Origin: Nannocystis pusilla
GTDB lineage: Bacteria; Myxococcota_A; Polyangia; Nannocystales; Nannocystaceae
NCBI RefSeq assembly: GCF_049337375.1
Contig: NZ_JBMPIV010000001.1
DNA length: 64,000 nt
Strand: one strand, 5' to 3'
Position 1 is the first letter of the stretch; every line of letters begins with the position of its first letter. The notes beneath the pieces were generated by a model. That model searched no databases and was not told the DNA's origin. It was given only the letters and a program-made list of their open reading frames with translations. Below, piece after piece: positions 32,166 through 53,080 of this stretch. A program made the translations under genes and the position numbers.

Positions 32166-32491
32166 GGCAGGCGTTCGGACGGAGGGGGCGGGTCCGAGGG
32201 AGGGGGATCGTCCTGGGGGGCATGTGCTCGCGGAGCGCCGTGGGGCGGCGGACGTGCCCTCGGCGACAGGAGCTCATTTGCAAGGAGTAGGCTGCGAGCT
32301 TCAGGGCAGGGGGCCGGCGCAGGCGTGTCACGCAGGGCCGCGCAGTCGACCCGTCGATGACGGGCGGTGACGGGCTCGGGGCCGTTGATGTCCGAAAAGA
32401 CATGTCCCGACGGACTCCTCGCCGCTCGGCCGGCTGCAGGCGCGACCGGGCGCCCGCTTGCCGGGCCGGGCCGCCGGCATAACACCGTCGC

Positions 32492-34953: not shown

Positions 34954-34959
34954 GGATCG

Positions 34960-37900: not shown

Positions 37901-38055
37901 GGATCGGCTCCGACGTGCAGCGGCCGCTGGCGACGGTGGTGGTCGGCGGGCTGGTGTCGACGCTGTTCCTGACGCTGCTGGTGCTGCCGTGCGCGGCGTC
38001 GCTGGTGCGGCCGCGGCGGCGAGAGGGCGCGAAGGACATGTCTTCAGGGACATGA
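34960..38055 (+). CDS. czcA: heavy-metal-efflux RND permease (CzcA/CusA family)
   Basis: 1031 aa, 12 TM, DFGIIVDGTLVMVEAIVH and AIGEMFRY motifs typical of HME-RND; last 9 codons (GAKDMSSGT) encoded by the palindromic repeat. Confidence 0.9.
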   Translation: MLTRLPLLALRFRLAVLLAAAVWIAAGAYSLATLKIEAYPDVSDTQVVVITMLPGYAAEEVEQLVTVPIERALGSVPHVIGRRSRTIFGLSVVELTFDDAIDDLVARQVVLEKLRDADLPPGVESSLGPMSTAIGEMFRYHLVSATLTTMQLRTLQDWVVAPRLLQAPGVADVVTFGGEVRQYQVELDPLALDKFHLSIDDIAAAIEENNENAGGGVIDNGQQSIAVRSVGQLQSAEDIASTLVGVDGGVPIFVRDVATVRIGPAPPTGIFGLDAAQGGVEGVVLMRRWENPSEVLRGIHARVDALNAGEELAGARIEGFYDRSELVGRTLRTVSRTLAEGVTIVVFVLVLLLASVRAALLTALMIPLSLLFAFVCMKLAGVPANLLSLGAIDFGIIVDGTLVMVEAIVHRLQQRPDPRAPAEPDEFAAAAREVTRPIVFSLAIIIAAYLPLFMLQRVERRLFTPMAFTVSTALLGALLLSLTLTPVLASYVFRRGVKSRPSRVMSAIAAGYAGLVRRLVGRARVVVAVAAVVTVAALVLVGGRVGTEFLPQLDEGSIWIRCNLPRGLSLFKSAEIASTIRGLVLQSPEVRQVASQTGRNDSGTDPYGPNRNEFLVDLQPYDTWPKGQVKADLVEALARRLRAAIPGATFSFTQPILDNATEAATGSSADLAIILRGPDLGELRRLAVQSRAIVAGIAGAADTAIEQEAAQEQLRLRLRRADMARYGVDVADVQQLVSLAIGGRPIATVYEGSRRFAAALRYIPEARASGEAIGRLMVMPHRGGRVPLAEVADIEVAEGATIIARRENQRQVTVRTNIRGRDQGSFVAEAQRRLQAALQLPPGYRLEWGGQFENLARARRRLVVILPLTLGIILALLCFAFRSLRWALLVLACVPFSLLGGVLALWLRGIHLSVSAAVGMVSLFGVAVMSGVLLVESIRAVAAGGDAVEDTVQGAARAVRPLLLMILVALLGMVPAARATGIGSDVQRPLATVVVGGLVSTLFLTLLVLPCAASLVRPRRREGAKDMSSGT

Positions 38056-38090
38056 GCGCGGCGGCGGGCTGCAGCGGCGCGGGTGTCCCT

Positions 38091-38172
38091 GGCGACATGT
38101 CCGATGCGGCATGCGCCTCGGGGCATGTCCAGGAGGGCATGCGCTTACGGGCATGTCCCGGGCGACATGCCG
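38091..38172. repeat. six-unit array of GNGGCATGYCC with exact 14-bp period immediately 3' of czcA (plus two more units at 38031-38057 overlapping czcA stop)
   Basis: catg at offsets 6,20,34,48,62,76 of ggcgacatgtccgatgcggcatgcgcctcggggcatgtccaggagggcatgcgcttacgggcatgtcccgggcgacatgcc. Confidence 0.8.
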
Positions 38173-38188
38173 GCAGCGGCCGCGCCGC

Positions 38189-39802
38189 TCACTCGCCGCC
38201 GAGGCAGACACCGTCGCGGCGGGGGTCGCCGAAGCCCGACAGGCGGCCGTCCTTGGCGCGCTGGACGGTGTGGACGCCGCCGAAGAACATGTTGAGGCCG
38301 GGCCAGGCGGTGGTGCGGTCGAACAGGCCGGCGAGGAGCTCGGCGGCGGCCGGGGAGAGGCCGGCCTCGAAGCTGACGTGGTCGCCCTCGACGTGGATCC
38401 GCGGGGCCGCGATCGCCGCGGGCAGGGGCAGGCCGAAGTCGAGGACGTTGGAGACGACTTGGAGGACGGCGGTGCGGATCCGCTTCGAGCCGCCGCTGCC
38501 GCACACGAGCAGGCCGCCGTCGTCGCCGACGATCGCCGTCGGCGACATCATCGACGCCAGGCGCTGATCGAGCGGCCAGGCGTGCGGGCCCGGCGGGTTG
38601 ACGTCGTCCTCGCCGAGCATGTTGTTGAGCATCATGCCGGTGCCGGGGACGATCTCGCCGCAGCCCTCGCCGTTGCTGACGGTGGCGGAGGCGGCGTTGC
38701 CGGCGGCGTCGATGACGCTGACGTGGGTGGTGCCGCGGCTGCGCAGCGGGCCGGCCAGCGCCGCGGCGTGGGCCGCCAGCAGGTCGCCGCCGAGCCAGGT
38801 CGCCTCGACGCCCTCGCGCGGCGGGCCGGCGGTCGCGCGCGCGCGCACGGTCTCGGCCTGGACGCGGGCCAGCAGGGCCGCGTGCTCGGCTGTGTGAAAG
38901 CCCATGTCTTTCAGGGCATGTCCGGAGAGCAAGGCGAGGGCGAAGGCGATCATCAGCCCGCCGGCGGCCGGCGGCGGGTTGGTGAGCAGGGTGGCGTCGC
39001 GGTAGCGCAGGCGCAGCGGGGCGCGGGCCTTTACGCGGTAGGCGGCGAGGTCGTCGGCGGTGATGTGGCCGCCGGCCTCGCGGCTCTGGCGGACGATCGC
39101 GGCGGCGACGTCGCCGCGGTAGAACAGGTCCTCGCCCTCGCGCGCGAGCTGCTCGAGCATGTCCCCGAGGACAGGGTTGACGAGGCGCCCGCCGGCCTTG
39201 ACCGGCGTCGGCGCGCCGCCCTCGACGGCCGCGGGGTCGCCGAAGATCGCGCGGGCGGCCGGCAGCTCGAGGTAGATCGGCGCCACCAGCGTCATGAGGT
39301 AGGCCATGAACGGCGACACGGCGATGCCGTCGCGGGCGGCCTGCACCGCGGGGGCGGCGATGACGGGCATCGGCAGGCGCGCGAGCTCGCGGTGGACGGC
39401 GAACATGCCGGCGACGAGGCCCGGCGTGGCGGCGCAGCCGACCCCGATGTGGAACGCCTGCTGCGCGGTGCCCCAGTCGGTGATCACCTCGCGCGCGTTG
39501 GCCTCGGCCTGCGGCCGGCGCACGCGCGGCGTGTGCACGAAGGCGTCGTAGAGCCGCGGCTCGCCGCCGGCCGGGAGCGCGAGGATGAAGCCGCCGCCGC
39601 CGGGCGAGGCGAGCACCGGCTCGGCGACACACGCGGCCATCAGCGCGGCGAGCACGGCGTCGAACGCGTTGCCCCCGGCCGCGAGCGCGTGCATGGCGGC
39701 CGCTGCGGTGACGGGGTGACCGGCGGCGACGCAGCCGCGGCGGTCGTGATGGAACTCGGGTGGCGTGACCGCTGTGTATCGTGCGTGAGGGGTCGCGCGC
39801 AA
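38189..39802 (-). CDS. ggt: gamma-glutamyltransferase family protein
   Basis: 537 aa; Thr nucleophile region GTTHVSVIDAAGNA, GGS..GGS motifs; two GGRCATGYCC repeat units lie inside the CDS (38900-38925, 39155-39177). Confidence 0.85.
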   Translation of the reverse strand: MRATPHARYTAVTPPEFHHDRRGCVAAGHPVTAAAAMHALAAGGNAFDAVLAALMAACVAEPVLASPGGGGFILALPAGGEPRLYDAFVHTPRVRRPQAEANAREVITDWGTAQQAFHIGVGCAATPGLVAGMFAVHRELARLPMPVIAAPAVQAARDGIAVSPFMAYLMTLVAPIYLELPAARAIFGDPAAVEGGAPTPVKAGGRLVNPVLGDMLEQLAREGEDLFYRGDVAAAIVRQSREAGGHITADDLAAYRVKARAPLRLRYRDATLLTNPPPAAGGLMIAFALALLSGHALKDMGFHTAEHAALLARVQAETVRARATAGPPREGVEATWLGGDLLAAHAAALAGPLRSRGTTHVSVIDAAGNAASATVSNGEGCGEIVPGTGMMLNNMLGEDDVNPPGPHAWPLDQRLASMMSPTAIVGDDGGLLVCGSGGSKRIRTAVLQVVSNVLDFGLPLPAAIAAPRIHVEGDHVSFEAGLSPAAAELLAGLFDRTTAWPGLNMFFGGVHTVQRAKDGRLSGFGDPRRDGVCLGGE

Positions 39803-39845
39803 CGGCGCTTGGCGCGTCGGGGGGCCGCCGGTATCCTCGCCGCCG

Positions 39846-40772
39846 ATGTCGACCCCGCATCCTGCTTCGCCCGAGGCCCGTGATCGTCTGGTGCTGGGAG
39901 TCGTCGGCGGCTCGGGGCTGTACGAGATCGAGGGGCTCGAAGAGGTCGAGCAGGTCGCGCTCGAGACGCCCTTCGGACGACCGTCCGACGCCTACACGGT
40001 GGGGCTCCTGCCGCGGGCGGACGGGCTGCCGCCGGTGCGCGCGGTGTTCCTGCCGCGGCACGGACGCGGACACGTGCTGCTGCCTTCGGAGATCAACTTC
40101 CGCGCCAACGTGCACGGCTTCAAGCAGCTCGGCGTGACCCACCTGCTCAGCGTGTCGGCGGTCGGCTCGCTGCGCGAGGACATCGCGCCCGGCGACGTCG
40201 TCATCCCCGACCAGTTCATCGACCGCACCGCCGGCCGCGCCCAGACCTTCTTCGGCGGCGGGCTGGTGGCGCACGTGCAGATGGGCGACCCGGTCGACGC
40301 CGGGCTGTCGCGCCGCGTCGCCGGCGCGGCCGAGGCCGAGGGCGCCCGCGTCCACGTCGGCGGCACGTGCGTGGTGATGGAGGGCCCGGCGTTCTCGACC
40401 CGCGCCGAGTCCAACCTGTACCGCTCGTGGGGCGCGCACGTGATCGGCATGACCGCGCTGCCCGAGGCCAAGCTCGCCCGCGAGGCCGAGATCGCCTACG
40501 CCCTGGTGGCGCTGGCCACCGACTACGACTGCTGGCACCAGAGCGAGGGCGAGGTCAGCGTCGAGGCCGTGATCGCGGTGCTCAAGGCCAACGTGGCGCT
40601 GTCGCGCCGCCTCATCGCCCGCGTGGCCGCCGGCCTGCCGGTGTCGACCGCCGAGCTGCCGTACCCGCGCGCGCTGCAGCACGCGCTCATCACCGATCCC
40701 ACGCGGATCCCGGCGGAGACGCGCGAGCGCCTCGAGCTGATCGCGGGGCACCTGCTGCAGGCGCCGGAGTGA
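39846..40772 (+). CDS. mtnP: S-methyl-5'-thioadenosine phosphorylase
   Basis: 308 aa PNP/MTAP family: GVVGGSGLY, GMTALPEAKLAREAEI, phosphate/purine-binding motifs. Confidence 0.85.
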   Translation: MSTPHPASPEARDRLVLGVVGGSGLYEIEGLEEVEQVALETPFGRPSDAYTVGLLPRADGLPPVRAVFLPRHGRGHVLLPSEINFRANVHGFKQLGVTHLLSVSAVGSLREDIAPGDVVIPDQFIDRTAGRAQTFFGGGLVAHVQMGDPVDAGLSRRVAGAAEAEGARVHVGGTCVVMEGPAFSTRAESNLYRSWGAHVIGMTALPEAKLAREAEIAYALVALATDYDCWHQSEGEVSVEAVIAVLKANVALSRRLIARVAAGLPVSTAELPYPRALQHALITDPTRIPAETRERLELIAGHLLQAPE

Positions 40773-40834
40773 GATGTCCCAGAGGACATGTGCCAGTGCG
40801 CATGTCCGTCGATGCCTGTCCTTTCAGGCATGTT
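40771..40834. repeat. ATGTCC-caga-GGACAT hairpin plus CATGTCC / CTGTCCTTTCAGGCATG units between mtnP and PfkB kinase gene
   Basis: Read directly; overlaps mtnP stop. Confidence 0.65.
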
Positions 40835-40861
40835 TGAACGAACAGCAACGAAGAGAGAGCC

Positions 40862-41803
40862 ATGACCGTCAGTAAGCCCCACCTCGTCGTCGTCGGCAGC
40901 GTCGCCATCGACTGGATCATCACGCCCCGCGCCGAGCGGCCCGAGAGCGTCGGCGGATCGGCGACCTTCTTCGCGATGGCGGCGTCGTACCTGTCCCAGG
41001 TGCGGCTGGTCGGCGTGGTCGGGCGCGACTTCCCCGACTACGCGGTGGCCGACCTCAAGGCGGCGGGCGTCGACACGTCCGGCCTCGAGATCGTGCAGGA
41101 CGGGCTGACCTTCCGCTGGAAGGGCCAGTACCACGAGAACATGAACGACCGGACGACGCTCGAGACGCACCTCAACGTGTTCGAGAAGTTCCAGCCGCGC
41201 CTGCCGGACGAGTTCCGCGGCAGCGAGTTCCTGTTCCTGGCCAACATCCAGCCGCGCCTGCAGAGCGACGTGTTCGCGCAGATGCAGCGGCCCCGCCTGG
41301 TCGGCCTCGACACGATGAACCTGTGGATCTCGATCGCCAACGACGACCTCAAGGCGGTGCTGAAGAACGTCGACGTGCTGACCCTCAACGACGAGGAGGC
41401 CCGCCAGCTCAGCGGGGAGCACAACATCGTGAAGGCGGCCCGCGCGGTCCGAGCCCTCGGACCCCGCAACGTGGTGATCAAGCGCGGCGAGTACGGGGCG
41501 CTGCTGTTCGACGCGGACGGCGAGGTGTTCTCGGCGCCGGCGCTGCCGCTCGAAGAGGTGGTCGACCCGACGGGCGCAGGCGACAGCTTCGCCGGCGGCT
41601 TCATGGGCTACCTGGCCCGCCCTGGCGTGGAGACCAGCGGAGCCTCGCTGCGCACCGCGATGATCTACGGGTCGGTGATGGCCTCGTTCTGCGTCGAGGG
41701 GTTCTCGTACGACCGGCTGAAGGGGCTCGACGCGGCGACGATCCAGAAGCGCTTCGAGACGTTCGCTTCGCTGACGAACTTTGCGCGGGCCAGCTTGACC
41801 TGA
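40862..41803 (+). CDS. PfkB-family carbohydrate/nucleoside kinase
   Basis: 313 aa; DPTGAGDSFAGGF ATP-binding signature, N-terminal GS..D ribokinase-like motif. Confidence 0.8.
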   Translation: MTVSKPHLVVVGSVAIDWIITPRAERPESVGGSATFFAMAASYLSQVRLVGVVGRDFPDYAVADLKAAGVDTSGLEIVQDGLTFRWKGQYHENMNDRTTLETHLNVFEKFQPRLPDEFRGSEFLFLANIQPRLQSDVFAQMQRPRLVGLDTMNLWISIANDDLKAVLKNVDVLTLNDEEARQLSGEHNIVKAARAVRALGPRNVVIKRGEYGALLFDADGEVFSAPALPLEEVVDPTGAGDSFAGGFMGYLARPGVETSGASLRTAMIYGSVMASFCVEGFSYDRLKGLDAATIQKRFETFASLTNFARASLT

Positions 41804-41988
41804 GGCCGGAGATTGGCGGTTCGCTAATTGCCGACTGTGAATTTGGCTCAGTTCCGGCGCATACGCCGGAATTCGGGCTACTTGCCAGCCAGTGCCAGGC
41901 GGTTGCCACGGACCGGCGGGGTCGGCCGCATCGGCACCACGGGCGCCAGCGTCGGGGGCGGGGCGGTTCCCGCCAGCATGTCCACCGT

Positions 41989-42226
41989 CTAGCGAGCTTT
42001 CCGGAGCTTGTCGAGGTGGATGTAGTACGTCATGGTCGTGGCCATGAGTGAGTGGCGCGCGAACGCCTGCAGGGCGTAGGGGGCACGCGCCGCCCTCGGC
42101 GAGCAGCGTGAGTACGCTGTGCCGGATCCGGTGAGGTCCCCTATCTGACAATGTCGTGTGAGACACGGCCCCCGCGAAATTTAGAGAGCGGGGCGAGTCC
42201 GTGAATCCAGAGCATGAGCAACCCAA
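41989..42226 (-). pseudogene. tyrosine recombinase (phage integrase) C-terminal remnant with a frameshift
   Basis: Two minus-strand frames give ...LSDRGPHRIRHSVLTLLAEGGA / (shift) / PYALQAFARHSLMATTMTYYIHLDKLRKAR*, i.e. box II HxxRH...LLxxG and LGHSxxxTTxxYxH with catalytic Tyr; N-terminal ~300 aa absent. Confidence 0.55.
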
Positions 42227-42227
42227 C

Positions 42228-42517
42228 CATCAAGAGAAGCGGCAACGAGGAGCAATCGAGTAGGCGGAGCGTGAGCGGGTCGAGGTCGTCGGCCGTCGAT
42301 GTGACGAGTCAGCGACGGCGTAGTCCGGTCGAAGGTCTTGCTGTGCCTGCGGCGGCAACAAGCACCAGAAGCGCCTTCCAAAAGAGCGGCAACGAGGAGC
42401 CATCGAGTAGGCGGGGCGAGCGCGCGTCGCGGTTGTCCACGATGCGAGGCATCCGCAACGATGTAGTCCCGTCGAAATTCTTGCTTCGCCGGGGTCTTCG
42501 TGCGGCGAAGAGCGCAC
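42228..42517. repeat. ~145-bp unit duplicated in tandem (~75% identity) adjacent to integrase remnant
   Basis: aagagaagcggcaacgaggagcaatcgagtaggcggagcg / aaaagagcggcaacgaggagccatcgagtaggcggggcg and gtagtccggtcgaaggtcttgct / gtagtcccgtcgaaattcttgct pairs 145 bp apart. Confidence 0.4.
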
Positions 42518-42719
42518 GAGGGTGGCGTTCGGACTGGAATCGGGCGATGCCACGGAGGCATGGACCTGATGGCGACTCAAGCACGAGAGCCCGACCCCGA
42601 GACTGCCGAGAAGGCGACGCGGCGCCGCTTCACGCCCGCTGACCCTGCGAACCTGCTCCGTGGACCTCCAAGCGTTCTCGTACTCGATACTTCGACGAAA
42701 TTCCCACTTCGAACCGCTT

Positions 42720-43137
42720 AAGCGCCACCACCCTGCCGTTCGCGGTGGTCGGCGGCGTCGCCGGCGTGTGGTGGACCGGCGGCGTGCTGTCGCTCGGCTC
42801 TCTGGTCGGCCTCGTCACTGCCCTGGGGATCGCCGCGCGCAACGGCATCATGCTCATCAGTCACTTCCGTCACCTCGAGCGCGAGGAAGGCGAGCCGTTC
42901 GGCCCGGCGCTGGTCCTGCGCGGCGCCGCCGAGCGCGTCACGCCGATCATGATGACCGCGCTCGCCACCGGCCTGGCCCTCGTCCCGCTGGCCCTCGGCG
43001 ACGACCGCCCAGGTCAGGAGATCGAGCACCCGATGGCAGTGGTGATCCTCGGCGGCCTGGTGACCTCGACGGCCCTCAACCTGTTCGTCGTGCCGGTCCT
43101 GTATCTGCGCTTCGGCGCGACTCAACGGCCTCGGTGA
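42720..43137 (+). pseudogene. CzcA/CusA-family RND permease, C-terminal fragment only (~135 aa)
   Basis: ...[58 protein letters not shown]...[23 protein letters not shown] matches the last TM helices of HME-RND pumps; no upstream continuation. Confidence 0.65.
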
Positions 43138-43153
43138 TCGTAGCCCCATCCGG

Positions 43154-44212
43154 TCATCCGCGTGACCCGGTCCGGGGGAGGCGGACGACGAACGCCGCCC
43201 CGCCGCGAGCGGCGCGCTCGACGTGGATCTCACCCCCGTGGCCCTCGATGACCCGCCGGACGATCGCCAGCCCCAGCCCGAGCCCTGCGCGGGCGTCGAC
43301 ACGATCGGCGACGGGCGACGCTCCGCGCACGAACGGCTGGAAGATCCGCTCGCGCTCCTGGGCCGGCACCCCGGGCCCCTCATCGCTGACGACGATGTCG
43401 ATCGCGGCGGTCGTGACCCGGCTTTCGAGGCAGACGGTGCTGCCGCGCGGAGTATGTGCAATCGCGTTGGCGACGATGTTCCCCAGTGCGCCTTCCATCA
43501 ATCCGCGCTCGACCGTCAATTCGTCCAGCCCCACACGACAGACCTGGATCACCACTCCCGCAGCCCTCGCCGCAGGCAGCCAGCGCTCGGCGACCGCATG
43601 AGCGAGGCTGGCCACGCTCGCAGGCTCGCGGCGGATGATGATGCCGGCGCGCGCCAGCATCAGCAACGATTCGACCAGCCTGGACATATGGCGGACCTCT
43701 CCCAGCGCGCGATTCGCCGCCACTTCCCACTCCTCGCGCGTGCGAGGCCTGCGCAGGGCGACCTCGAGCGTGCTCGACAGCACCGCGAGTGGCGAACGCA
43801 GCTCGTGCGAAGCGTCGGCCGCGAATTGGCGCTGCAGGGCGGTGCCCCGCTCGAGCCGGGTGAACAGGCCGTTGAGCGCCTCGCTGAGGGCGTCGAGCTC
43901 GTCGCCGGTCGACGACACCGGCAGTCGTTCGCCGAGGTGCTCCGCCGACATACGGGCCGCCGCGCGGACGACCGTGTCCACGCGCTTCACGGCCCGGCGC
44001 GCGTGCCAGTGGGCGCCGAAGACGGCGAGCAGGAGCCCGAGCGGGGCCGCCGCGGCCAGCGCCAGCCCGACCTGCTCGAACGCCTCGGCCAGCGCGTCCT
44101 CCTCGACAAATGCCCCCGCCTGCTCCTCCTCCTCTTCGTCGAGATAGACGATGAGGCCGGCCGTCCCCGCGAAGACCACCAGACTGAGCGCGGTCGAGGC
44201 GCCGATCCACAT
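43154..44212 (-). CDS. sensor histidine kinase (two TM, short periplasmic loop, HisKA + HATPase_c; CusS/CzcS-like)
   Basis: ATG at 44212 (MWIGASTALSLVVF); H-box ASHELRSPL; N, G1 (DEGPGV), G2 (GLGLGLAIV) boxes. Confidence 0.75.
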   Translation of the reverse strand: MWIGASTALSLVVFAGTAGLIVYLDEEEEEQAGAFVEEDALAEAFEQVGLALAAAAPLGLLLAVFGAHWHARRAVKRVDTVVRAAARMSAEHLGERLPVSSTGDELDALSEALNGLFTRLERGTALQRQFAADASHELRSPLAVLSSTLEVALRRPRTREEWEVAANRALGEVRHMSRLVESLLMLARAGIIIRREPASVASLAHAVAERWLPAARAAGVVIQVCRVGLDELTVERGLMEGALGNIVANAIAHTPRGSTVCLESRVTTAAIDIVVSDEGPGVPAQERERIFQPFVRGASPVADRVDARAGLGLGLAIVRRVIEGHGGEIHVERAARGGAAFVVRLPRTGSRG

Positions 44213-44250
44213 GGCTAGCCCCGCGCCGAACGACCGCGTGCCGCGCCGCC

Positions 44251-44919
44251 TCAATTGGCACCTACCTTGCAGCGCAACCCGGCGCCGCGCACCGTCTCGA
44301 TTCGGACCGCCTTGCCGACGAGCTTGCGCCGCAGGTGCGTGAGGTGGACATCGATCGTATTCGTGCCCGGATCGACGGCGCAGCCGAACACGTCGCGGAG
44401 GATGTCGCCGCGCGGTACGACCTCGCCGCGGCGGCGCAGCAGATACGACAGTAGGGCGTACTCTCGCGGCGAGAGCGCGACTTCCTGGCCCGCGCAGCGG
44501 ACCACGTGGCCGTCGTCGAGGACCACCTCCTCGCTGCTCCGCGGCCACCAGCGCGGCTGACTCGCCCGCCGGCTCAGGGCGCGGATCCTGGCGACCAACT
44601 CGCCGAACGCGAACGGCTTGACGAGGTAATCATCAGCACCCAGCTCGAATGCCCGCACCCGCGCCTCGAGGGCGTCACGCGCGGTCAGGACCAGCACCGG
44701 CACGGGTCGATGCAGTCGTCGCAATTCCTGCAAAACATCGAGTCCGTCGCCGTCGGGCAAGCCGAGGTCGAGGACGATGACGTCCAGATCGGCGCCGCGG
44801 GCGCGACACAACGCGGCGGCCGCCTCCGCCACGTGGACCACGTCCATCCCTTCCTCTTGGAGACCCTGCTGAATGACCTCGAACAATGTTGCATTGTCCT
44901 CGACGAGCAGAATTCTCAT
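44251..44919 (-). CDS. OmpR-family response regulator (CusR/CzcR-like)
   Basis: ATG at 44919 (MRILLVEDN); receiver Asp in VIVLDLGLPDGDG; winged-helix C-domain ...VHLTHLRRKL. Confidence 0.85.
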   Translation of the reverse strand: MRILLVEDNATLFEVIQQGLQEEGMDVVHVAEAAAALCRARGADLDVIVLDLGLPDGDGLDVLQELRRLHRPVPVLVLTARDALEARVRAFELGADDYLVKPFAFGELVARIRALSRRASQPRWWPRSSEEVVLDDGHVVRCAGQEVALSPREYALLSYLLRRRGEVVPRGDILRDVFGCAVDPGTNTIDVHLTHLRRKLVGKAVRIETVRGAGLRCKVGAN

Positions 44920-45155
44920 GGGCACTCCTTGCAATCTCTGCACAGCGCGCAGCGCTCGCGCCGCGCCCCGCTTGGGCCGCCGGGCGGAGCGGACGGGCGC
45001 AGGACGCGTCACGCGCTCGCTTATGCCAGTTTTCCCGGCCCGAGACCATCGGACCGAACATTAAGATCTCATGAATCGTTAAATCTTCGTGTAGCAAACG
45101 AATCGTCGATTGATCCGAGGACGAATGCGATAAAGTGAGAGCAGGAGTGAATCAC

Positions 45156-45683
<528 letters not shown>

Positions 45684-46789
45684 GCAGGTTCGCTGTCCGC
45701 ATGCACCCGCGCTACACCGTCGCGCGTGGACCAACAATAGACAGTCGTCCGGCGAAAGCCGGCTGGCTGTCTATTTCGCGGCCGCGGGCGTGGCGCTCGC
45801 ATTGATCCGAAAGCTCACCCGATCCTGCACACCACCGAGGGCGAGCCTCGCGCAGCGCGGCGGAGATGCGGACCGGCGAACGAATGACGGCGCGGCTCAT
45901 CGCACCGAGCGTTACGGATCGGCACCGGCCGTTCCGAGCCGCCGATCACTCGCGGTTCTGTTCGTCGTTGTCACCGTCGTGGCGACGCACTGGATGATCT
46001 CGCACTGGCCGGGTTGCAGCAGCATGGTCGTCGCGGCCTCGCAGACGACCATGGCCATGCTGACCTCGCCTGCGCGATGGACGGTTCCCGAAGCTGGGCA
46101 CCGCAGCGAGGTCTTGATCGCGGGCGAGAGCCTCAGCCGTCCCGCCTGCGACACGTTCGGCACCCTGCTCCACGAGGCTGCGCATGGGGTTCGGGCACCT
46201 GGGCGCAGACATTCCCGCCCGACTCCGACCTCGTGCCGCTGCTGACAAAGGGCTCGTCCTCGCGGGTCGGCCGGAGTCCTTGACGTTCGCCGCCACGGGA
46301 CGCGGAGGAGGGCCCGCGTCGACGCGCGGGCCCTCATGTCAGGGGCACGCCGGGCGGCCGGTCGTCGCGCGCGAGCTCGGCCGCGCTGGCGCATAGGTCG
46401 GGCCATTGCTCGAGCAGGGCGCCGAAGCGGGCGAGCAGTATGCGATCCGAGTGAGCCGAGGACTCCGATGCCGCATGACGCCGCCGATCCCCACGTCCGT
46501 GATGCGCGACGGCGACGAGCTCGGCCATCCGCGCGGGAGGTCGAGCCACGGTCGGTGAACATCAGGGAAGACACGCAACCCCCTTGCGCCTCTTGCGCCA
46601 GTCCCCTCGTGCGAGCTGCAAGCCCCAAGAAAATGCAGGGCAGGATCGCGCGGGCCACCTGGAGTGAGCCGCTTGTGGCAGCCTCAAGGGGAAGGAAGCG
46701 CGACGATGGAGACCTCTCCAAGCCCCTAGCCCAACGGACGGACCTCTCCAAGCCCCTCGCCCTGCGAACGGACTTGGTCCGAGCACAAG

Positions 46790-46925
46790 GAAGTCGGGGC
46801 CGACTTCATCGGCGGGCTGATTGACGGCCGCTATGAGGTCACCCGCAGGCTGGCCAAGGGCGGCATGGCCCACGTGTTCCTCGCTAAGGACCGGACGCGG
46901 AAGTGCCACGTGGCGATCAAGATTC
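46790..46925 (+). pseudogene. Ser/Thr protein kinase N-terminal fragment (subdomains I-II only)
   Basis: ...DFIGGLIDGRYEVTRRLAKGGMAHVFLAKDRTRKCHVAIKILHR then sequence diverges into non-kinase text; no catalytic loop follows. Confidence 0.45.
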
Positions 46926-46976
46926 TGCACCGCGTCAGCGCATCGGCTCGGCGCCGCATATACTGGACGCGTGCGG

Positions 46977-47642
46977 ATGCCGTGGTTGTTGTTCGCGCTG
47001 CTCTGCGCCTGTGGGCCGACCCCGCCCGAGCCAGCCGGCACCGCGACGGAGACGACTTCGAACGTGACGTCCTCGACGTCCTCGTCGACATCGTCCGGCG
47101 CGAGCGACCCAGTCACCACCACGACCGAGCCTCCGCTCGATCTGCCGTCCGTCACGCCCGAGGCCGGCTGCGCAGCGCTGTGTGCGGCGCAGGCGGCGTG
47201 CCGCGGCGTGCCAGTCGATCCCGAGTGCGTCCCCGGATGTGTCGATGGCCTCGGACACGGAGCGGGCCATGAGCCCGGATGCATCGCCGCTGACGCCGTG
47301 CTCACCGACTGCCTCGCCACCCTGAGCTGCGAGGTCGTGCAGGACGATGGCGGTGTCCGAGCCTGCGAGCCCGAGCTGCGGGCGATGCTGGAGGCCTGCT
47401 CCCTCTGTCACAGCGACGCCGGTTGGCTCGACCTGGACTCCTGCTTCATCGATGACCTCTGCCCCGAAGGCCTCCGACGCGTCGAGTGTGACGCCTCCTC
47501 GTGTGTATGCACCTTCGAGGGCGAGGTGCTCGCCGTCTGTCCGGGCGGGTGCGACCCCGACGGCCTCCCGTCGGGCGGTTTCGCCTGCTGCTCCCAGCTC
47601 GCGCGCTCGCATCCTCCAAGCAGTGCAGGACTCCAGCTCTGA
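46977..47642 (+). CDS. hypothetical Cys-rich lipoprotein
   Basis: ATG 46977; MPWLLFALLCAC signal/lipobox; Ser/Thr linker; >20 Cys in ~150 aa. Confidence 0.45.
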   Translation: MPWLLFALLCACGPTPPEPAGTATETTSNVTSSTSSSTSSGASDPVTTTTEPPLDLPSVTPEAGCAALCAAQAACRGVPVDPECVPGCVDGLGHGAGHEPGCIAADAVLTDCLATLSCEVVQDDGGVRACEPELRAMLEACSLCHSDAGWLDLDSCFIDDLCPEGLRRVECDASSCVCTFEGEVLAVCPGGCDPDGLPSGGFACCSQLARSHPPSSAGLQL

Positions 47643-47696
47643 CTGGGGGGGCGGCAGGACGTCCGTCAGCTCGAGGCTGCTGCCTGAAGGTATGAT

Positions 47697-48239
47697 GTGG
47701 CCATGAAGAAGCTCCCCGAAATCCGCGACGCGTTCCTCGGACTCGAGTGGGAAGAGGCGGACAAGACCACCGCTGACTACCGCCTCCTGGAGCGGCTGCA
47801 CAAGGAGGGCTATCATCCGATCCAGGTCGGCCGCTCGACCTTCGTGATCGAACAGTGCGAGGACGGCGACTCGGTGCCCCATCTCGGCGCCACAGACGCG
47901 CTGCGGATTACCGTCCACGGCGACAAGGACCTCCACGAGCAGGAAAACATCTATTACATCTGGGGCGGTCGCTACGGAATCGCCTCTGGAGGGATATACG
48001 AGTCCGATGGCGCCCAGGTCAGCGCGACGCCCTTCGACCGGGACGAGTTGGTAACGCCCCGAGCGGTGGTCCCCGCGGTTCGCATGCTCCTCGACAGTGC
48101 TCGCAACAAGCTAGATCACCACCCGTGCGAAGCTGACGGAAAGTTCGTCGCTGACGACCACTACCGAGAGCTACGACAGAACGTCATTGGCGCCCTTGAA
48201 GCCCTCCAGCAGTATGTCGGCGTGCGATATGGTCGCTAG
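47697..48239 (+). CDS. hypothetical protein (180 aa), lower-GC gene
   Basis: Balanced amino-acid composition, ~60% GC versus ~70% surroundings; no recognisable motif. Confidence 0.45.
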   Translation: MAMKKLPEIRDAFLGLEWEEADKTTADYRLLERLHKEGYHPIQVGRSTFVIEQCEDGDSVPHLGATDALRITVHGDKDLHEQENIYYIWGGRYGIASGGIYESDGAQVSATPFDRDELVTPRAVVPAVRMLLDSARNKLDHHPCEADGKFVADDHYRELRQNVIGALEALQQYVGVRYGR

Positions 48240-48384
48240 GTTACCCGCAAGGCCCCGAGGCCACGGACGGAGGCCGGAGGCTGCCGGGAACCCCTGCCGG
48301 GACAAAGTGGACCAAGGGCCGGACCTTTACGAGCGCCGCGCAGATCCAATGGCTGAAGGCCCCTGGGCGACGAGGCCGGTGAGG

Positions 48385-49626
48385 CTAACCCTTCCGATCG
48401 GGCGGGTAGGCGGCGCGGAGCCCGAGGGCGACTCGACGCTCGTCGTCGCCGAGTTCGTCCGCGTCGTCGGGGTCGTCGAGGCCGTCCTCGTCCACACCGG
48501 CGGGGCGCTCGACCCGGGCTGCTTCGAGCTCGCGGTGGCACCAGGGCTGGTCGATCGCGGCGAGCATGTCGGTGATGTCGGCCCTCGCCATCGGTGTGGT
48601 CGAACGCAGGGCGCGGCGCACCAGGCCGAGTGCGAGATCAGGGAGGTAACGCAAGGCGAGGATCGTTAACTTACCGAGGAAGGGGTTGCCGAGGAAGCCC
48701 GCGGCCCGCTCGACGGCCGCAAACTCGATGAATCGGGCGCGCAGGCCCGGTGCTCGCGCGTCGTGTTCGAGCTGGAAGGCGAGGCACTGATAGGTGGGGT
48801 AGGGGGGGTCGTCGTTCGTCACACGCGCGAACAGCCGGCGGACCAGCGGCACGCCGCGCGGGTCGAAGGAGGTGCACAGCAGCTCGACAGCCTTGCCGGC
48901 TGACGCGTCGATCGGGCCTGCAAGCAGCAGCGACTCGTACACGCGCAGGAGCTCGTCGGGCGTCAGGATTTGGGCGGCGGCCGGGAGGAAGTCGTAGGCG
49001 CGCGGATGGGCGCTCGCGCGGGCGCTCAGCCAGCGACCATGCGCCGAGATCACCGCCGGTGCGTCGTTGTCACCGAGCGCCTCTAGCCAGCACGCGACGA
49101 CCCCGGGATCGGCGAAGTCGACCTCGCCGAGCGCCGCGACCCGCTGCTCGAGCGCGTCGCACAGGCGAAACACATGCTCGCCCTGCGGATGCTCGAGGAT
49201 CGCGGCGTCACGCAGCTCGGCGAGCGAGGCTATGAGTGCGTTCTCGTGCGGCAACCAGCGCCATAGTCGTCGCTCAGGCAGGTCGCGCTCGCGAATGCTG
49301 GCGACGCGGACGGCGAAGAACCACGGATCGATCAAAGCGGCGTCGTCGTCGAGGAAGTCGACGTCGACGAGCTCACCGTCGGGGCCGATGAGGCAACAGC
49401 CGATGCCGTGAAATCGATAGTCCCATCCGGGCTGGCCGGGGACCGGGCCGACACCTTCGTCGTCTCGGTCGGGAAGGGTCTCGACGATGCGGCGGTGCCA
49501 CACCTGACGCGCGCGCTGGCGCATCAGCGCAAGCGTCAGCCAGGCGAGCCAGGGCGACGCCACCGGCGCGACGGTCCGCCCCGCGAGCGCGCCGTCGATA
49601 GCCCGGACGAAATCCATCAGGTTCAT
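48385..49626 (-). CDS. hypothetical protein (~413 aa)
   Basis: ATG at 49626 (MNLMDFVRAIDG); upstream 118 codons of the ORF are Arg/Ser-rich junk; no recognisable motif. Confidence 0.45.
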   Translation of the reverse strand: MNLMDFVRAIDGALAGRTVAPVASPWLAWLTLALMRQRARQVWHRRIVETLPDRDDEGVGPVPGQPGWDYRFHGIGCCLIGPDGELVDVDFLDDDAALIDPWFFAVRVASIRERDLPERRLWRWLPHENALIASLAELRDAAILEHPQGEHVFRLCDALEQRVAALGEVDFADPGVVACWLEALGDNDAPAVISAHGRWLSARASAHPRAYDFLPAAAQILTPDELLRVYESLLLAGPIDASAGKAVELLCTSFDPRGVPLVRRLFARVTNDDPPYPTYQCLAFQLEHDARAPGLRARFIEFAAVERAAGFLGNPFLGKLTILALRYLPDLALGLVRRALRSTTPMARADITDMLAAIDQPWCHRELEAARVERPAGVDEDGLDDPDDADELGDDERRVALGLRAAYPPDRKG

Positions 49627-50732
49627 AGCGGCACCCCGTCGGTCATTCCCGCCGACTGTACTTCGGGAGCCGGCCCGGTGGACAGCCTGCGGCTCACTCG
49701 CTGCAGCCGCGGCGCCCGAGCTCGTGTCGCTGCAGCCGTCACGGCGGCGCGAACCACAGGCCGGGGCAGACGTCGCAGAACTCCGCCGCCTCCTCGGCGC
49801 AGACCGTGTCCGATGCGGCGCCCCACTTGTCTTGCCGCCACTGTCGATCGTGTTGTGGTCCGCCTCGGTGCCGATACATGTGAGAAAAGCGAGGTGCGCC
49901 GCGGCATAGGCCAAGGGCGGCTGAAATGTACTTTTCATGGATTCATTGCGTATTCCGTCGAGGGCATGACGACGTGGCACATGCCGCCTGTCAAGAGCTT
50001 AATTCCGCACTGGAACACGGTTCCACTTGCACCGGACAGAGTGCCCAAGGTTGCCTCTGAACGCCGTTCTTCGTAGATATTGTTGGTGAAGTGATAGGTG
50101 CGCGGAATCCAGATCTGGTCGTCGCTGGATGAATTCCCGGCACCTCGAGCGTTGCCACGGCGTTGCCCAGCCGCTCCGTTGCCAACGTTTGAGCGGGCCG
50201 CGTCGGGCCACGGCGGATGACCCAAACCCTCACCGAACACCGATCTGAGCCAGGAGACGAGAGGCCGGGGGATCAGGGCGTTCGGGGAGGAATTAATTGC
50301 CGACTGCGCCTCGCGGGGGGGGGGCGGGGAAGGTCCGTCCGCGAGTTAACCGACCGGATGAACGCTCGTTCCTCGCGCTCATCCGGTCTCTAATTCGCGG
50401 CCGGCGCTTCCCCGCACCCCTGGCACGGCTGCAGCCGTGAGGAGCCGCCGCGCCGAACTCGGCTTCGTTCGTGAGCGGCTTTTGAAGCCGTGCGTCGGCG
50501 TCGATGCGACGGCCAGGGCTGGCGGTCGCATCGACGCTTTCTCGCGAGCTTTCGGCGCGGCCTGGTGCGCGGGGGATTTCGTGGGGGCGAGCGCGAGCGT
50601 GCCAGACGCGGCCGCAGAACGCCGTGTGCTCGGGGGTCGTCCAGCTGGGGGCGGAGAGAGGTGCGCAGCGTCAACCTTCATCGTTGCCGCATCTGCGACG
50701 TGTCGCATATTCGAGGCGCCCGGGAGAATCCC

Positions 50733-51380
50733 ATGAACTACACCACGATCGCGTTGAGCGGCCTATTGTGCACAATCCCCTATCTTCAAAATTGCGAGGT
50801 CGATCACGACGACCAGGACGACCACGACGACGATAACGACGACCACGACGATAACGACGACGACGACGACGATGATGGCGGCTCCGAGCCGCTGTACTGG
50901 GCGGAGGGGCCGCAGCAGGACGTGCCCGAGGGCGACCTCGTCGGCTGGACCGAGTGCTTCGCGAATCTCTACGGCGAGGCCGAGCCCGACCTCACGGGGA
51001 CGATCCTCGGCCAGGAGTGCACCGGGTCGAAGCTCCTCATGGCCTGCCGCCCGGTCGGTTCGCCCGACTTCCAGCTGCTGGCGATGGGGGAGCGCGCCGA
51101 CGTCCTGTTCGACGTCGGCATCCAGAGCGACGGCAAGCACGAGGCCAACGGGGTCGCCTGGTACTTCAGCGACAACTTCTCGTGGGGCTTCGCGCCTGCG
51201 GGCGACACGGTGAATCGTACGGAGTGCGACACTCAATTCGGCGGCCCGGAGGCCGACTCCAATCTGCGCCTGTGCTGGCACACTCTCGGCAACGAGATCG
51301 GCTCCGGCTACCGCTGCGGCGCGAACGAGAACCTCAACGGGTCCGGTGACTTCGAGCGCGTGATCTTCGAGGCCGATTGA
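50733..51380 (+). CDS. secreted protein with poly-Asp/His acidic tract (DHDDQDDHDDDNDDHDDNDDDDDDD) and Cys-containing C-terminal domain
   Basis: ATG 50733; signal-like MNYTTIALSGLLCTIPYLQNC; preceded by ~700 bp of low-GC (~55%) non-coding DNA. Confidence 0.5.
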   Translation: MNYTTIALSGLLCTIPYLQNCEVDHDDQDDHDDDNDDHDDNDDDDDDDGGSEPLYWAEGPQQDVPEGDLVGWTECFANLYGEAEPDLTGTILGQECTGSKLLMACRPVGSPDFQLLAMGERADVLFDVGIQSDGKHEANGVAWYFSDNFSWGFAPAGDTVNRTECDTQFGGPEADSNLRLCWHTLGNEIGSGYRCGANENLNGSGDFERVIFEAD

Positions 51381-51420
51381 CGCGGCGCCCCCAGCGACAT
51401 GGCCCCGGGGACAGATTGGC

Positions 51421-52404
51421 TCAGGACCGCGCGCGCGGTGGCGGGGGCCGCAGGGCGGCGACGACGAGGGCGCGGAAGAACTGCGCGCCGGGGTCGGCGT
51501 CGGTGCGCGCGTGCCAGTGCAGGGCGAGCGGGAAGTCGACGATCTCGAGCGGGGCGGCGACGGTGCGCAGGGGGAGGCGGCGGCTGACCTCGGCGGCGAA
51601 GCGGCGCGGGAGGCCGGTCATCCAGTCGGTGCGCGAGACGGCGACGGCGGCGGCCATGAAGTGCGGGACGGTGAGGACGACGCGGCGGCGCAGGCCGGCG
51701 CGGGCGAGGTTGTCGCGGGCGACGCGGTGGCCGTGGCCGCCCTCGCCGAGGATCTGCACGTCGACGTAGGGGGTGGCCTCGAAGCCGGCGCGGTCGAGGC
51801 GGCGGCCGACCTTGCGGTTGTCGCGGCGGACGACGAGGACGCCCTGTTCGCTGTAGAGCGGGGTCTGGCGCAGGCCGGGCGCAGTGACGGCGGCGGGGGC
51901 GAGGGCGAGGTCGACGAGGCCGGCGGCGAGGCCGTCGCTGGCGATCAGACGCTCGACGGTGATGACCTGCAAGGAGGCGCGCGGGAGCTGGCGCTCGAAG
52001 CGGGCGACGATCCGCGGCAGGTCGGAGACCTCCTGGTTGTCGGTGAGGGCGATGGAGAAGCGGCGGGTTGTGGTGGCAGGGTCGAAGTCGCGGCCGGCGG
52101 CGAGGGCAGCCCGCAGCTCGTGCAGGCCGGCGGCGATCCGCGGCTGCAGCTGGAGCGCCACCGGGGTCGGCGCCAGGCCGCGGCCGCGCCGGACCACGAG
52201 CGGGTCGCCGACGACCTCGCGCAGCCGCGCGAGGGCGTTCGAGACCGCCGACTGGGTGACGTGCAGGCGTCGCGCCGCCGCAGTGGCGCTGCCCTCGGTG
52301 AGCACCGCGTCGAGGACGAGGAACAGGTTGAGGTCGATCGCCGCGAGATCCACGAGTATCACCGCCAGTGATGGAGGAGATGAGGAAGTATCACTGGTCG
52401 TCAT
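51421..52404 (-). CDS. LysR-family transcriptional regulator
   Basis: N-terminal HTH IDLNLFLVLDAVLTEGSATAAARRLHVTQSAVSNALARLRE; LysR substrate-binding domain length. Confidence 0.8.
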   Translation of the reverse strand: MTTSDTSSSPPSLAVILVDLAAIDLNLFLVLDAVLTEGSATAAARRLHVTQSAVSNALARLREVVGDPLVVRRGRGLAPTPVALQLQPRIAAGLHELRAALAAGRDFDPATTTRRFSIALTDNQEVSDLPRIVARFERQLPRASLQVITVERLIASDGLAAGLVDLALAPAAVTAPGLRQTPLYSEQGVLVVRRDNRKVGRRLDRAGFEATPYVDVQILGEGGHGHRVARDNLARAGLRRRVVLTVPHFMAAAVAVSRTDWMTGLPRRFAAEVSRRLPLRTVAAPLEIVDFPLALHWHARTDADPGAQFFRALVVAALRPPPPRARS

Positions 52405-52429
52405 CGCCGGCCAGGGTTACTCCGATCGC

Positions 52430-52903
52430 ATGCAAACCGACGAGGCGGAGATCCGTGGGCATGTGCTGGCGACCTTCGAGGCGTGGAGCCGCGGCGACGC
52501 GCGGGCCTTCGCGGCCCTGTTCGCGCCGGAGGTCGATTACGTGACGTTCGACGGCGGGCTGGCGCGCGGGCGGGCGGAGGTCGAGCGGGCCCACGCGGCG
52601 CTGTTCGCGACGGTGCTACGTGGGACGAGCCTGCGCGGGGAGGTCACCGACGTGCGCACGATCGGCGAGGACGCGGCGGTGGCCCACGCGATCGGCGGGG
52701 CGGTGTGGCCGTGGCAGCGCGGGATCCCGGCTGACCGGCTGTCCCGGCAGACCTACGTGCTGGTCCGCGCCGGCGAGGGCTGGACGATCACCGCGTTTCA
52801 CAACACGCGCGTGCGGCCGCTGCCGCGGCCGGAGTCGCTCGCGTTCAAGCTGTTCGCGTGGTTCGTGCGGCTGCGGCTGCGGCTGCGCGGGGCGATCGGG
52901 TGA
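52430..52903 (+). CDS. SgcJ/EcaC-type (NTF2-like, DUF4440/SnoaL-like) protein
   Basis: ATG 52430; EAEIRGHVLATFEAWSRGDARAFAALFAPEVDYVTFDG typical NTF2-like N-terminus; divergent from LysR gene. Confidence 0.6.
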   Translation: MQTDEAEIRGHVLATFEAWSRGDARAFAALFAPEVDYVTFDGGLARGRAEVERAHAALFATVLRGTSLRGEVTDVRTIGEDAAVAHAIGGAVWPWQRGIPADRLSRQTYVLVRAGEGWTITAFHNTRVRPLPRPESLAFKLFAWFVRLRLRLRGAIG

Positions 52904-53080
52904 GGTGCACGAGCCTCGGCTCGAGGTCGCGGGCGGGCCGCCCGCAAGCGAGGGCGGGCGAGGTTCGGCGCAGCACGCGGACGGGCGAGAGGGCGCTTCG
53001 ACGCGCGCGTCGCCGAGCAGGGCCGAGGGGCGCCGGCGGGCCCGGTGGTTTTCCCCGGCGGGCTACGCCACGGTATTTGC

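Follow-up and report, generated by a model that had tools for sequence, protein, structure and literature searches.

A segment of about 8.5 kb downstream of the pfkB gene in one strain of Nannocystis pusilla is very probably a site-specifically integrated genomic island that is now immobile and decaying. It was examined within a 64,000-nucleotide stretch of contig NZ_JBMPIV010000001.1 (assembly GCF_049337375.1), hereafter the window, in which gene calls were made from the guanine-plus-cytosine (GC) content of third codon positions. An earlier reading of this DNA (the original prediction) had interpreted 41804-50732 as the decayed remnant of an integrated element that once carried a second metal efflux module. 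The core of that proposal was upheld. Integration was indicated by an empty site in relatives, by 13-bp repeats and by an integrase remnant and an attP-type arm at opposite ends; decay was indicated by the broken integrase, a deleted pump operon and gene stubs; and past carriage of an RND efflux module was indicated by an intact operon in a homologous block of Nannocystis bainbridge with 95% identity.

Borders, empty site and composition of the island

The comparison with related genomes that the original prediction had called for was run, and an empty site was found in a second N. pusilla strain (GCA_026626665.1; L001) and in four short metagenome/SRA contigs (L002 to L005). In alignments, L001 positions 1-10943 corresponded to window 30931-41804 (96.6% identity), positions 10977-11241 to window 50294-50561 (90%) and positions 17929-20942 to window 51396-54411 (97.7%). 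Window positions 41838-50306 were missing from L001, leaving ∼8.5 kb of extra DNA in the window. The pfkB protein was identical in the two strains. In the four contigs, which matched at 98.7% identity, pfkB ran uninterrupted into the sequence 3' of window position 50294. The 13-bp sequence TAATTGCCGACTG occurred exactly twice in the window, at 41825 and at 50294, and once in L001, at the empty site (10977). The island thus extends from 41825 to 50306 and comprises 8,469 bp when one repeat copy is counted. The predicted borders of 41804 and 50732 enclosed a real island, but the left border was 21 bp off and the right border lay ∼430 bp too far, within host DNA.

The GC content of the window is ∼72%, and the island was the lowest-GC stretch of 8,469 bp within it (68.2%, compared to a mean of 72.0% with a standard deviation of 1.8). 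GC at third codon positions was 0.78 to 0.91 in island genes and 0.94 to 0.98 in the flanks. The compositional deviation was real but modest. Island genes had been described as having 55 to 62% GC; their GC content was indeed depressed relative to the host, but it ranged from 62.6 to 72%, with no gene below 62.6%. Similarly, a segment of ∼700 bp (49990-50730) that had been described as low-GC noncoding DNA proved to be heterogeneous, consisting of the right arm of the element (61% GC), the attR core and then conserved host intergenic DNA of 69 to 70% GC. A tRNA or tmRNA gene was considered as the integration target and rejected, as there was none in the window. Rfam searches at the att site and in the island gave two subthreshold microRNA-like matches only.

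An integrase pseudogene and an attP-type arm at opposite ends

A search of the whole window by tblastn with five full-length tyrosine recombinases gave a single match, which ran from 42139 to 41869 and corresponded to residues 450 to 535 of 541 (E 6e-12). No trace of the N-terminal ∼415 to 450 residues was detected by this search anywhere in the 64 kb. The remnant retained the HRIRH...ARH...YYIHL catalytic region followed by a degenerate C-terminal extension. The catalytic signature HxxR...H...Y was present as GPHRIRHS...ARH...TYYIHL when read across one frameshift, and it aligned column by column with the metagenome integrase fragment P0001 and with the full-length relatives. A strict peptide of 49 amino acids (aa), in which the frameshift was bridged (GPHRIRHSVLTLLAEGGACPYALQAFARHSLMATTMTYYIHLDKLRKAR*), was 69% identical to P0001 and matched two PHROG integrase families (E 1.5e-6 and 6e-6). 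A 65-aa extended version, which scored 28.2 bits against PF00589, was discarded because ∼16 residues at its start come from the end of an insertion sequence (IS). P0001 (L033, positions 67-710), the closest database relative of the fragment, was itself split into two overlapping gene calls and may also be frameshifted.

The original prediction had placed a frameshifted recombinase C terminus at 41989-42226. The recombinase was real, and the family match that had been demanded as a check was obtained by both tblastn and PHROG searches, but the gene lies on the minus strand at 42139 to 41869 and is broken at several points, and 42146-42239 belongs to the IS. The lesions comprise one frameshift (∼42080-42096), two in-frame stop codons and a 5' truncation. 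With four independent lesions, a single sequencing error, which had been offered as an explanation of the frameshift, cannot account for the state of the gene.

Searches of metagenome contigs with two conserved integrase peptides identified 23 loci, and the complete genes among them encode proteins of 490 to 541 aa. The full-length relatives carry an N-terminal PF12728 (HTH_17) domain together with PF00589, and relatives are annotated in N. pusilla, in a Nannocystis metagenome-assembled genome and in Nannocystis sp. strain ILAH1.

Integrase homology ended at 42139, and the terminus of an IS began at 42146. Window positions 42139-42239 were 93% identical to positions 12129-12228 of the ILAH1 locus L034, with the same TGACAATGTCGTGTGAGACACGG start, and in ILAH1 a DDE transposase fragment (rve, E 5.8e-12) lies directly next to this IS end. 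The end in the window begins TGACAATG, and ∼95 bp of it is left; no transposase, second end or target duplication of the IS could be identified in the window. Assignment to the IS3 family is by association with the ILAH1 copy and is accordingly tentative. The simplest reading of this junction is that an IS3-like element inserted into the integrase gene and that everything beyond it was then lost.

At the opposite end of the island, window 50176-50290 was 69 to 75% identical to DNA located 40 to 160 bp past the integrase stop codon in four metagenome loci (L033, L039, L040 and L044). The orientation of the arm in these loci was that expected of an unintegrated attP junction; the contigs represent relatives and not the same element. 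Homology of the right arm to DNA past the integrase stops in attP-type contigs indicated that both ends of the island belong to one element family. The arm contained three GTTGCC hexamers within 33 bp (50151, 50162 and 50178), compared to 0.75 per kb in the window. The hexamer also occurs in L033 (as GGCAAC), and the att core contains TTGCC. These repeats are candidate integrase-binding sites.

The metagenome relatives of the integrase stop ∼20 bp before TTGGACTTCGGCAAC, both in integrated loci (L036, L037, L041 and L048) and in attP-type loci (L033, L039 and L040). Beyond TTGGACTTCGGCAAC, several contigs continue into coding sequence for a myxobacterial Cys-rich repeat (GNMDDTDAC...) and others into the conserved element arm. 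Integrated and unintegrated forms therefore both seem to have been sampled, and genes for Cys-rich repeat proteins may be the integration targets of these relatives.

These end structures also bear on the direction of the difference between strains. A 13-bp direct repeat would fit a deletion that left one copy, such that the occupied state would be ancestral and the empty sites would be deletions in other strains. This is extremely unlikely, given the integrase remnant at one repeat and, at the other, an arm that in attP-type contigs is contiguous with integrase genes. The composition of the island is also foreign, and protein accession numbers, rather than DNA, suggest that in N. exedens, ILAH1, RBIL2 and another N. 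pusilla strain pfkB and lysR are separated by only one or two genes. Precise excision by an integrase would give the same picture and would still imply an integrated element. Even harder to credit is a chimeric contig assembled from unrelated fragments. The many short unrelated blocks and gene fragments could be expected of such an artefact, but the junctions were coherent, with a duplicated att core, an IS end situated exactly where integrase homology ends and blocks ending at terminators, and the host DNA on both sides was collinear with a related complete genome.

Two other types of element were tried and rejected. An integron did not fit integrase relatives of ∼500 aa with an HTH_17 domain, the mixed orientation of the genes, or a pair of 147-bp repeats between which neither open reading frames (ORFs) nor inverted repeats were found. 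A prophage remnant was set aside as the integrase fragment was the sole PHROG match in the island. No PHROG match was obtained for nine genes flanking the integrase of an intact relative in N. pusilla CP185339 (seven upstream and two downstream) or for one gene beside the P0044 integrase (L060).

A deleted RND efflux operon

The left part of the island contains the 3' end of an RND permease gene. The segment at 42643-43137 matched PF00873 (ACR_tran) over positions 894 to 1020 of 1021 (E 9.1e-35), which supplied the pump-family match that had been sought for the 42.7- to 43.2-kb segment. The fragment also matched positions 909 to 1033 of the 1,051 positions of TIGR00914, with 98.5 bits, the cut-off of 701.45 being beyond the reach of a fragment. 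A genome scan with the adjacent kinase detected a locus of N. bainbridge BB15-2 (NZ_JAQNDL010000001.1; L006) that matched window 42726-45778 only, at 95% nucleotide identity. The pump fragment was 96% identical in nucleotide sequence to the 3' end of an intact N. bainbridge gene for a 1,057-aa permease, and the alignment placed the breakpoint exactly at 42726/42727. The first ∼920 pump codons, an adaptor gene and an outer-membrane gene are gone from the window. The existence of an intact operon in N. bainbridge, together with a switch of homology exactly at 42726/42727, indicated that the pump operon was lost from the window copy.

The N. bainbridge locus had the same order and orientation as the island for the pump 3' end, kinase, regulator, promoter region, acidic lipoprotein gene and terminator. 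Unlike the island, it contained a complete RND operon encoding the permease, an adaptor (HlyD_3) and an outer-membrane factor (OEP), and it lay at another chromosomal locus without an integrase or arms. Immediately 5' of the pump operon, and in the same orientation, was a second kinase/regulator pair (L006 positions 16940-19302; TIGR01386 135.9 bits, with a PhoB-like regulator), so that the N. bainbridge pump sits between two two-component systems.

The original prediction had identified the fragment as CzcA/CusA. A C-terminal RND fragment was confirmed, but its parent failed two tests for such a pump. The intact N. bainbridge permease scored 583.9 bits against TIGR00914, below the cut-off of 701.45. 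Metal-transporting RND pumps have the signature DFGxxxDGAxxxVEN in their fourth transmembrane (TM4) segment, and the N. bainbridge permease has VDDAIIDVEN at this position (LGEVVDDAIIDVEN); TM4 itself is deleted in the window. By comparison, the resident CzcA of the window scored 883.6 bits and had the TM4 motif DFGIIVDGTLVMVE, and the pump fragment was only 33% identical to it. Judged by these sequences, the lost RND pump has an uncertain substrate and is not a demonstrated Czc pump.

Between the IS end and the pump fragment, a diverged tandem duplication was detected by pairwise methods only and was not reported by Tandem Repeats Finder. A duplication of 145 bp had been predicted; it was present, but the period was 147 bp and the copies (∼42227-42373 and 42374-42520) were only 77 to 81% identical. 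It had no coding signal and no Pfam match in any frame. Immediately left of the breakpoint, an 81-bp blastn match (window 42649-42729 and positions 7866-7944 of the N. exedens DSM 71 locus L016) showed 83% identity, and similarity stopped at the same point in both genomes. A tblastx comparison of 42140-42730 with all of the retrieved loci gave high-GC noise only. About 2 kb from the 81-bp match, positions 10007-10206 of L016 matched the kinase gene at its 5' end over 200 bp (86 to 90%), and no kinase domains followed. By their sequence, the L016 matches suggest that parts of this module have decayed independently in N. exedens.

An intact two-component system and acidic lipoprotein gene

The histidine kinase and OmpR-family regulator genes that converge on the pump fragment are intact, and the predicted proteins keep the H-box, the ATP-binding motifs and the receiver aspartates, as read from the translations. 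The pair had been described as typical of czcRS/cusRS. The pair was present and intact, but both proteins scored below the cut-offs of the corresponding models and the kinase has no sensor domain. Against TIGR01386 the kinase scored 202.5 bits (cut-off, 292.55) and aligned over profile positions 157 to 457 only; against TIGR01387 the regulator scored 172.7 bits (cut-off, 279.2), its best model being PmrA (186.2 bits; cut-off, 330). The kinase has two transmembrane helices separated by a loop of ∼23 aa (DEEEEEQAGAFVEEDALAEAFEQ) that consists mostly of Glu, Asp and Ala, with no periplasmic sensor domain between the helices.

The kinase was 98% identical in amino acid sequence to its N. bainbridge counterpart, and the orthologous pair in that species converges on the intact RND operon. 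Comparison of the two species gave 17 synonymous and 9 nonsynonymous changes for the kinase (dN/dS, 0.20), 6 and 6 for the regulator (0.35) and 7 and 9 for the pump fragment (0.52); with 12 to 26 substitutions per gene, these values form a trend and not a test. The two-component system looks constrained from this comparison. The intergenic region between the regulator and lipoprotein genes fell to 48% GC (180-nucleotide window at 45001) and was nearly identical in N. bainbridge. Its TTAAGATCT/TTAAATCTT and GAATCGT motifs were found nowhere else near promoters in the 64-kb window.

The original prediction held that only the two-component system had survived intact; the divergent lipoprotein gene has been kept as well. 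Its only differences from the N. bainbridge counterpart were indels of 12 and 36 bp that keep the reading frame, and it was followed by a hairpin-plus-T-run terminator ending at ∼45777, with the homology to the N. bainbridge block stopping just past the hairpin. No family match was obtained for the lipoprotein among Pfam, TIGR models, PHROGs and PADLOC. Its poly-Asp/Glu tail (window 45375-45663) is encoded by GAGGAC-type repeats with a period of 6/18, and the length of the tail varies by these indels.

The conservation of the kinase-regulator-lipoprotein unit suggested that it is probably still working. The kinase would sense an envelope or cation signal and drive the shared divergent promoter, thereby controlling its own operon and the acidic lipoprotein gene. 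It is conceivable, though rather improbable, that the three genes constitute a self-contained module for sensing and buffering cations in the envelope which is independent of the pump and which purifying selection has hence maintained since the pump was lost; if so, the acidic lipoprotein would be a cation sink or a cosensor of the kinase.

Proposed cross-regulation of the resident czcCBA operon

The orphaned two-component system had been proposed to cross-regulate the resident czcCBA operon at 32.5 to 38.1 kb. This operon has no adjacent two-component system in the window, and the best family match of the kinase was the heavy-metal sensor kinase model. The proposal nevertheless appeared very unlikely, as the pumps belong to different lineages and the resident czcC promoter has no regulatory motif in common with the regulator's own promoter. 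In addition to the 33% identity over the fragment, the resident pump has DFGIIVDG and 883 bits against TIGR00914, compared to VDDAI and 584 bits for the parent of the island pump. The resident czcC promoter has its own array of GGGCATGT with an exact 14-bp period (32109, 32123, 32137 and 32151) and lacks the AT-rich motifs of the regulator's promoter, while the island promoter lacks the GGGCATGT array; the sole motif common to the two was an 11-mer resembling a ribosome-binding site. Furthermore, the empty-site strain L001 has the same czcCBA operon without the island two-component system, and the two-component system upstream of the N. bainbridge pump is a different one.

The sequence GGGCATGT/G occurred four times upstream of czcC (32109-32158) and also at 32218, just past the czcA stop codon (38121 and 38149) and at a few further intergenic positions (4719/4735 and 52457). 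For the pattern GRGCATGK, there were 27 matches in the window, compared to an expectation of 7.9 ± 2.9. The GGGCATGT array may be where a regulator of the resident metal pump binds.

Proposed history of the island

The following sequence of events is the most likely origin of the present structure. A Nannocystis-associated element encoding a tyrosine recombinase of ∼500 aa with an N-terminal HTH_17 domain recombined its attP at the 13-bp core TAATTGCCGACTG, and insertion 22 bp downstream of pfkB duplicated the core at both ends, as the junctions show. An IS3-like element would then have entered the integrase gene, with loss of everything upstream of codon ∼415 to 450, and the leftover codons would have gained a frameshift and two stop codons; these lesions are present in the DNA, and their order is conjectural. 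The cargo probably included an RND efflux operon, then the convergent kinase/regulator pair and the divergent gene for the poly-acidic lipoprotein, from which a deletion, as the comparison with N. bainbridge shows, took the outer-membrane gene, the adaptor gene and ∼920 pump codons. Finally, a backbone gene encoding a HEAAH-motif protein and a Ser/Thr kinase gene would have been cut down to stubs. Its sequence predicts that the island is no longer able to excise on its own.

Several observations weigh against this reading. The 49-aa integrase peptide scored 21.9 bits against PF00589 (profile positions 129 to 170 of 172), below the gathering score of 27.1. No explanation was found for the 487 bp that separate the IS end from the pump breakpoint. 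The substitution counts behind the dN/dS values are small, and the functions proposed for the surviving two-component system and lipoprotein are read from their sequences. Each block of the island was found alone, in a different context and a different genome: N. bainbridge had the pump-kinase-regulator-lipoprotein block, ILAH1 the DUF6896 gene and a metagenome contig the 178-aa ORF. No intact copy carrying all of the blocks was found among the genomes and contigs compared.

The separate distribution of the blocks is relevant to a different history, in which the integrase and arms constituted a small element, the pump block and other genes were added later and separately, and the element never carried an efflux module. 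This accretion is possible, but we consider it doubtful. The blocks do have sharp borders and different nearest relatives (at 95%, 93% and 91%), the N. bainbridge block has no related integrase or arm nearby while lying near an rve/Mu-type transposase, and the relatives of the integrase carry quite different cargo. However, none of the blocks extends beyond the two att cores, the HEAAH fragment points to mobile-element backbone genes having once been inside the island, and no second set of repeats or second recombinase was found within it. Accretion would alter the history of the region and not its nature as an integrated island.

Comparison with known systems

Islands integrated by tyrosine recombinases typically have an integrase gene directly beside one att site, a short core at both ends, an empty site in sister strains, a foreign composition, variable cargo and decay by IS insertion and deletion, and the N. 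pusilla island resembled them in all of these respects. It differed from the usual examples in its target, which is intergenic after pfkB and not a tRNA gene, and in its integrase family, the members of which are large (∼490 to 540 aa) and carry an N-terminal HTH_17 domain. The classic myxobacterial example of a phage-type integrase system is Int/attP of Mx8. Unlike islands with integrases of the phage type, this island and its relatives had no recognizable phage genes, and here the integrase is a pseudogene and the element is immobile. The IS end resembled those of IS3-family elements in having a terminus that starts with TG and, in its ILAH1 counterpart, an adjacent rve DDE transposase; its position coincides exactly with the break in the integrase.

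The czcCBA-czcRS and cusCFBA-cusRS systems are metal efflux modules of Cupriavidus metallidurans and Escherichia coli, respectively. Like these modules, the N. bainbridge locus has a tripartite RND operon beside an OmpR-type two-component system, and the best models were heavy-metal sensor kinase for the kinase and CusA/CzcA for the pump. Unlike these modules, the parent pump, kinase and regulator were all under the curated cut-offs and the parent TM4 contained VDDAI; in addition, the island kinase lacks the periplasmic sensor part of ∼150 residues and the pump is deleted from the island.

The region is a further instance of a well-known type of genomic island and leaves current understanding unchanged. 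It offers a well-delimited example of island death, in which an IS struck the integrase, a deletion took the main cargo operon and a regulatory module stayed behind. It also calls for caution in annotation, since the "heavy-metal" two-component system is an orphan without a pump. Finally, it delineates an attB site together with a family of large tyrosine integrases that have an HTH_17 domain and conserved arm sequences. Intact members of the family are annotated in Nannocystis, and these could seed site-specific integration vectors for this natural-product-rich genus.

Other cargo and neighboring sequence

The coordinates of all features are listed in Table 1.

TABLE 1 Features of the island and its flanks, in window coordinates
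Feature	Position	Strand	Remarks
Resident czcCBA operon	32483-38055		Upstream of island
pfkB (sugar-kinase gene)	40862-41803		Directly left of island
attL core TAATTGCCGACTG	41825-41837	+	Left copy of 13-bp direct repeat, 22 bp past pfkB stop
Tyrosine-recombinase (integrase) pseudogene	41869-42139	minus	Adjoins attL; last ∼85 codons; tblastn, PHROG, Pfam
Left end of IS3-like insertion sequence	42146-42239	+	Terminal sequence TGACAATGTCGTGTGAGACACGG; remainder of IS gone
Diverged tandem duplication	42227-42520	+	Period of 147 bp; pairwise methods
Low-GC (55%) sequence of 78 bp	42649-42726	+	Adjoins pump breakpoint; also in N. exedens DSM 71
RND efflux permease gene, 3' fragment	42727-43137	+	411 bp (136 codons plus stop); Pfam, TIGR00914, N. 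bainbridge alignment
Histidine kinase, intact	43154-44278	minus	Start codon uncertain; HAMP, HisKA and HATPase domains (Pfam)
OmpR-family response regulator, intact	44251-44919	minus	222 aa; MFZ6177273.1; Response_reg and Trans_reg_C (Pfam)
Divergent promoter region, regulator/lipoprotein gene	44920-45155	.	AT-rich; motifs TTAAGATCT/TTAAATCTT, GAATCGT twice
Lipoprotein with ∼110-aa poly-Asp/Glu tail	45156-45683	+	Signal peptide and LSAC lipobox
HEAAH-motif protein gene, internal fragment	46066-46197	+	42 codons; pseudogene remnant; phmmer, tblastn
Ser/Thr protein kinase, N-terminal stub	46823-46930	+	Glycine loop and VAIK lysine
Probable secreted protein or lipoprotein ORF, apparently intact	46977-47642	+	Thr/Ser-rich linker and Cys-rich domain; GC-frame signal
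Hypothetical protein	47703-48239	+	178 aa; MFZ6177278.1; lowest-GC island gene (62.6%)
DUF6896-domain protein, intact	48385-49626	minus	413 aa; MFZ6177279.1; PF21837, E 2.7e-9
Right arm of element	50050-50293	minus	GTTGCC repeats at 50050, 50151, 50162 and 50178
attR core TAATTGCCGACTG	50294-50306	+	Right repeat copy; host DNA restarts here
LysR gene	51421-52404	minus	Downstream of island

To the right of the lipoprotein gene, no sustained coding frame was present at 45779-46790. Within this segment, the original prediction had noted a possible SprT-like HExxH fragment. The fragment was real and belongs to a conserved family characterized by the motif EVLIAGE.L.R....TLLHEAAHG, as indicated by phmmer (E 6.8e-14 in a search of 1.84 billion proteins) and tblastn (E 4e-19 to 1e-9). 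It covers only residues ∼50 to 100 of the 222 to 262 aa of this family. The SprT (PF10263) label found no backing, as there was no Pfam match for the fragment at E≤1-10 and none on record for the family member P0100, and a search of the PDB with the family profile gave nothing. The P0100 gene sits in a compact array of genes that all point in one direction and also encode DnaB, ParA, a resolvase and a DNA methyltransferase, and these neighbors mark the HEAAH gene as a putative mobile-element backbone gene.

The predicted N-terminal stub of a Ser/Thr protein kinase gave weak but consistent matches, to positions 1 to 40 of 263 of Pkinase (E 0.005) and, by tblastn, to kinases in the window (E 2e-5) and in L015 (E 3e-6). 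Just upstream of it, 46711-46773 contained a noncoding 30-bp tandem repeat (2.1 copies, 87% match).

Beyond the stub, three ORFs appear to be intact. The ORF at 46977-47642 had no family match in Pfam, TIGR models, PHROGs or PADLOC, and the 178-aa protein likewise had no family match. A 595-bp block with the 178-aa ORF was 91% identical to a metagenome contig in which it has other neighbors, and the DUF6896 block was 93% identical in nucleotide sequence to ILAH1, again in a different context. There were 33 homologues of the DUF6896 protein, including proteins of Nannocystis, Pendulispora and Sorangium. Pfam searches of the long ORFs at 45.7 to 47.9 kb and 50.0 to 50.7 kb gave nothing, and PADLOC and PHROG searches of the cargo ORFs gave nothing besides weak receiver-domain noise. 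The homologous blocks end close to gene ends, and by such comparisons the island appears to be a mosaic.

On the host side, czcCBA is followed towards the island by a gamma-glutamyl transpeptidase gene, a methylthioadenosine phosphorylase gene and pfkB. Beyond the lysR gene lies an ORF of 1,961 codons (stop to stop) for a multidomain kinase.

About 27 nucleotides to the right of the att core, the host intergenic DNA contains a 72-nucleotide hairpin (-42 kcal/mol; window 50333-50405, L001 11014-11086). The two N. pusilla strains differed in it at four positions, which form two compensatory double substitutions that keep the stem. The hairpin was single copy in the window and matched no Rfam family. 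A second strain-variable segment adjoins the island, where 834 bp of the window (50562-51395) is replaced by 6.7 kb in L001 (11242-17928). The window segment holds an ORF (50733-51380) encoding a protein with an Asp/His-rich run at its N terminus, and the L001 segment holds a LysR gene along with three others that have no known domains. From these two strains, the interval between pfkB and lysR looks like a hot spot.

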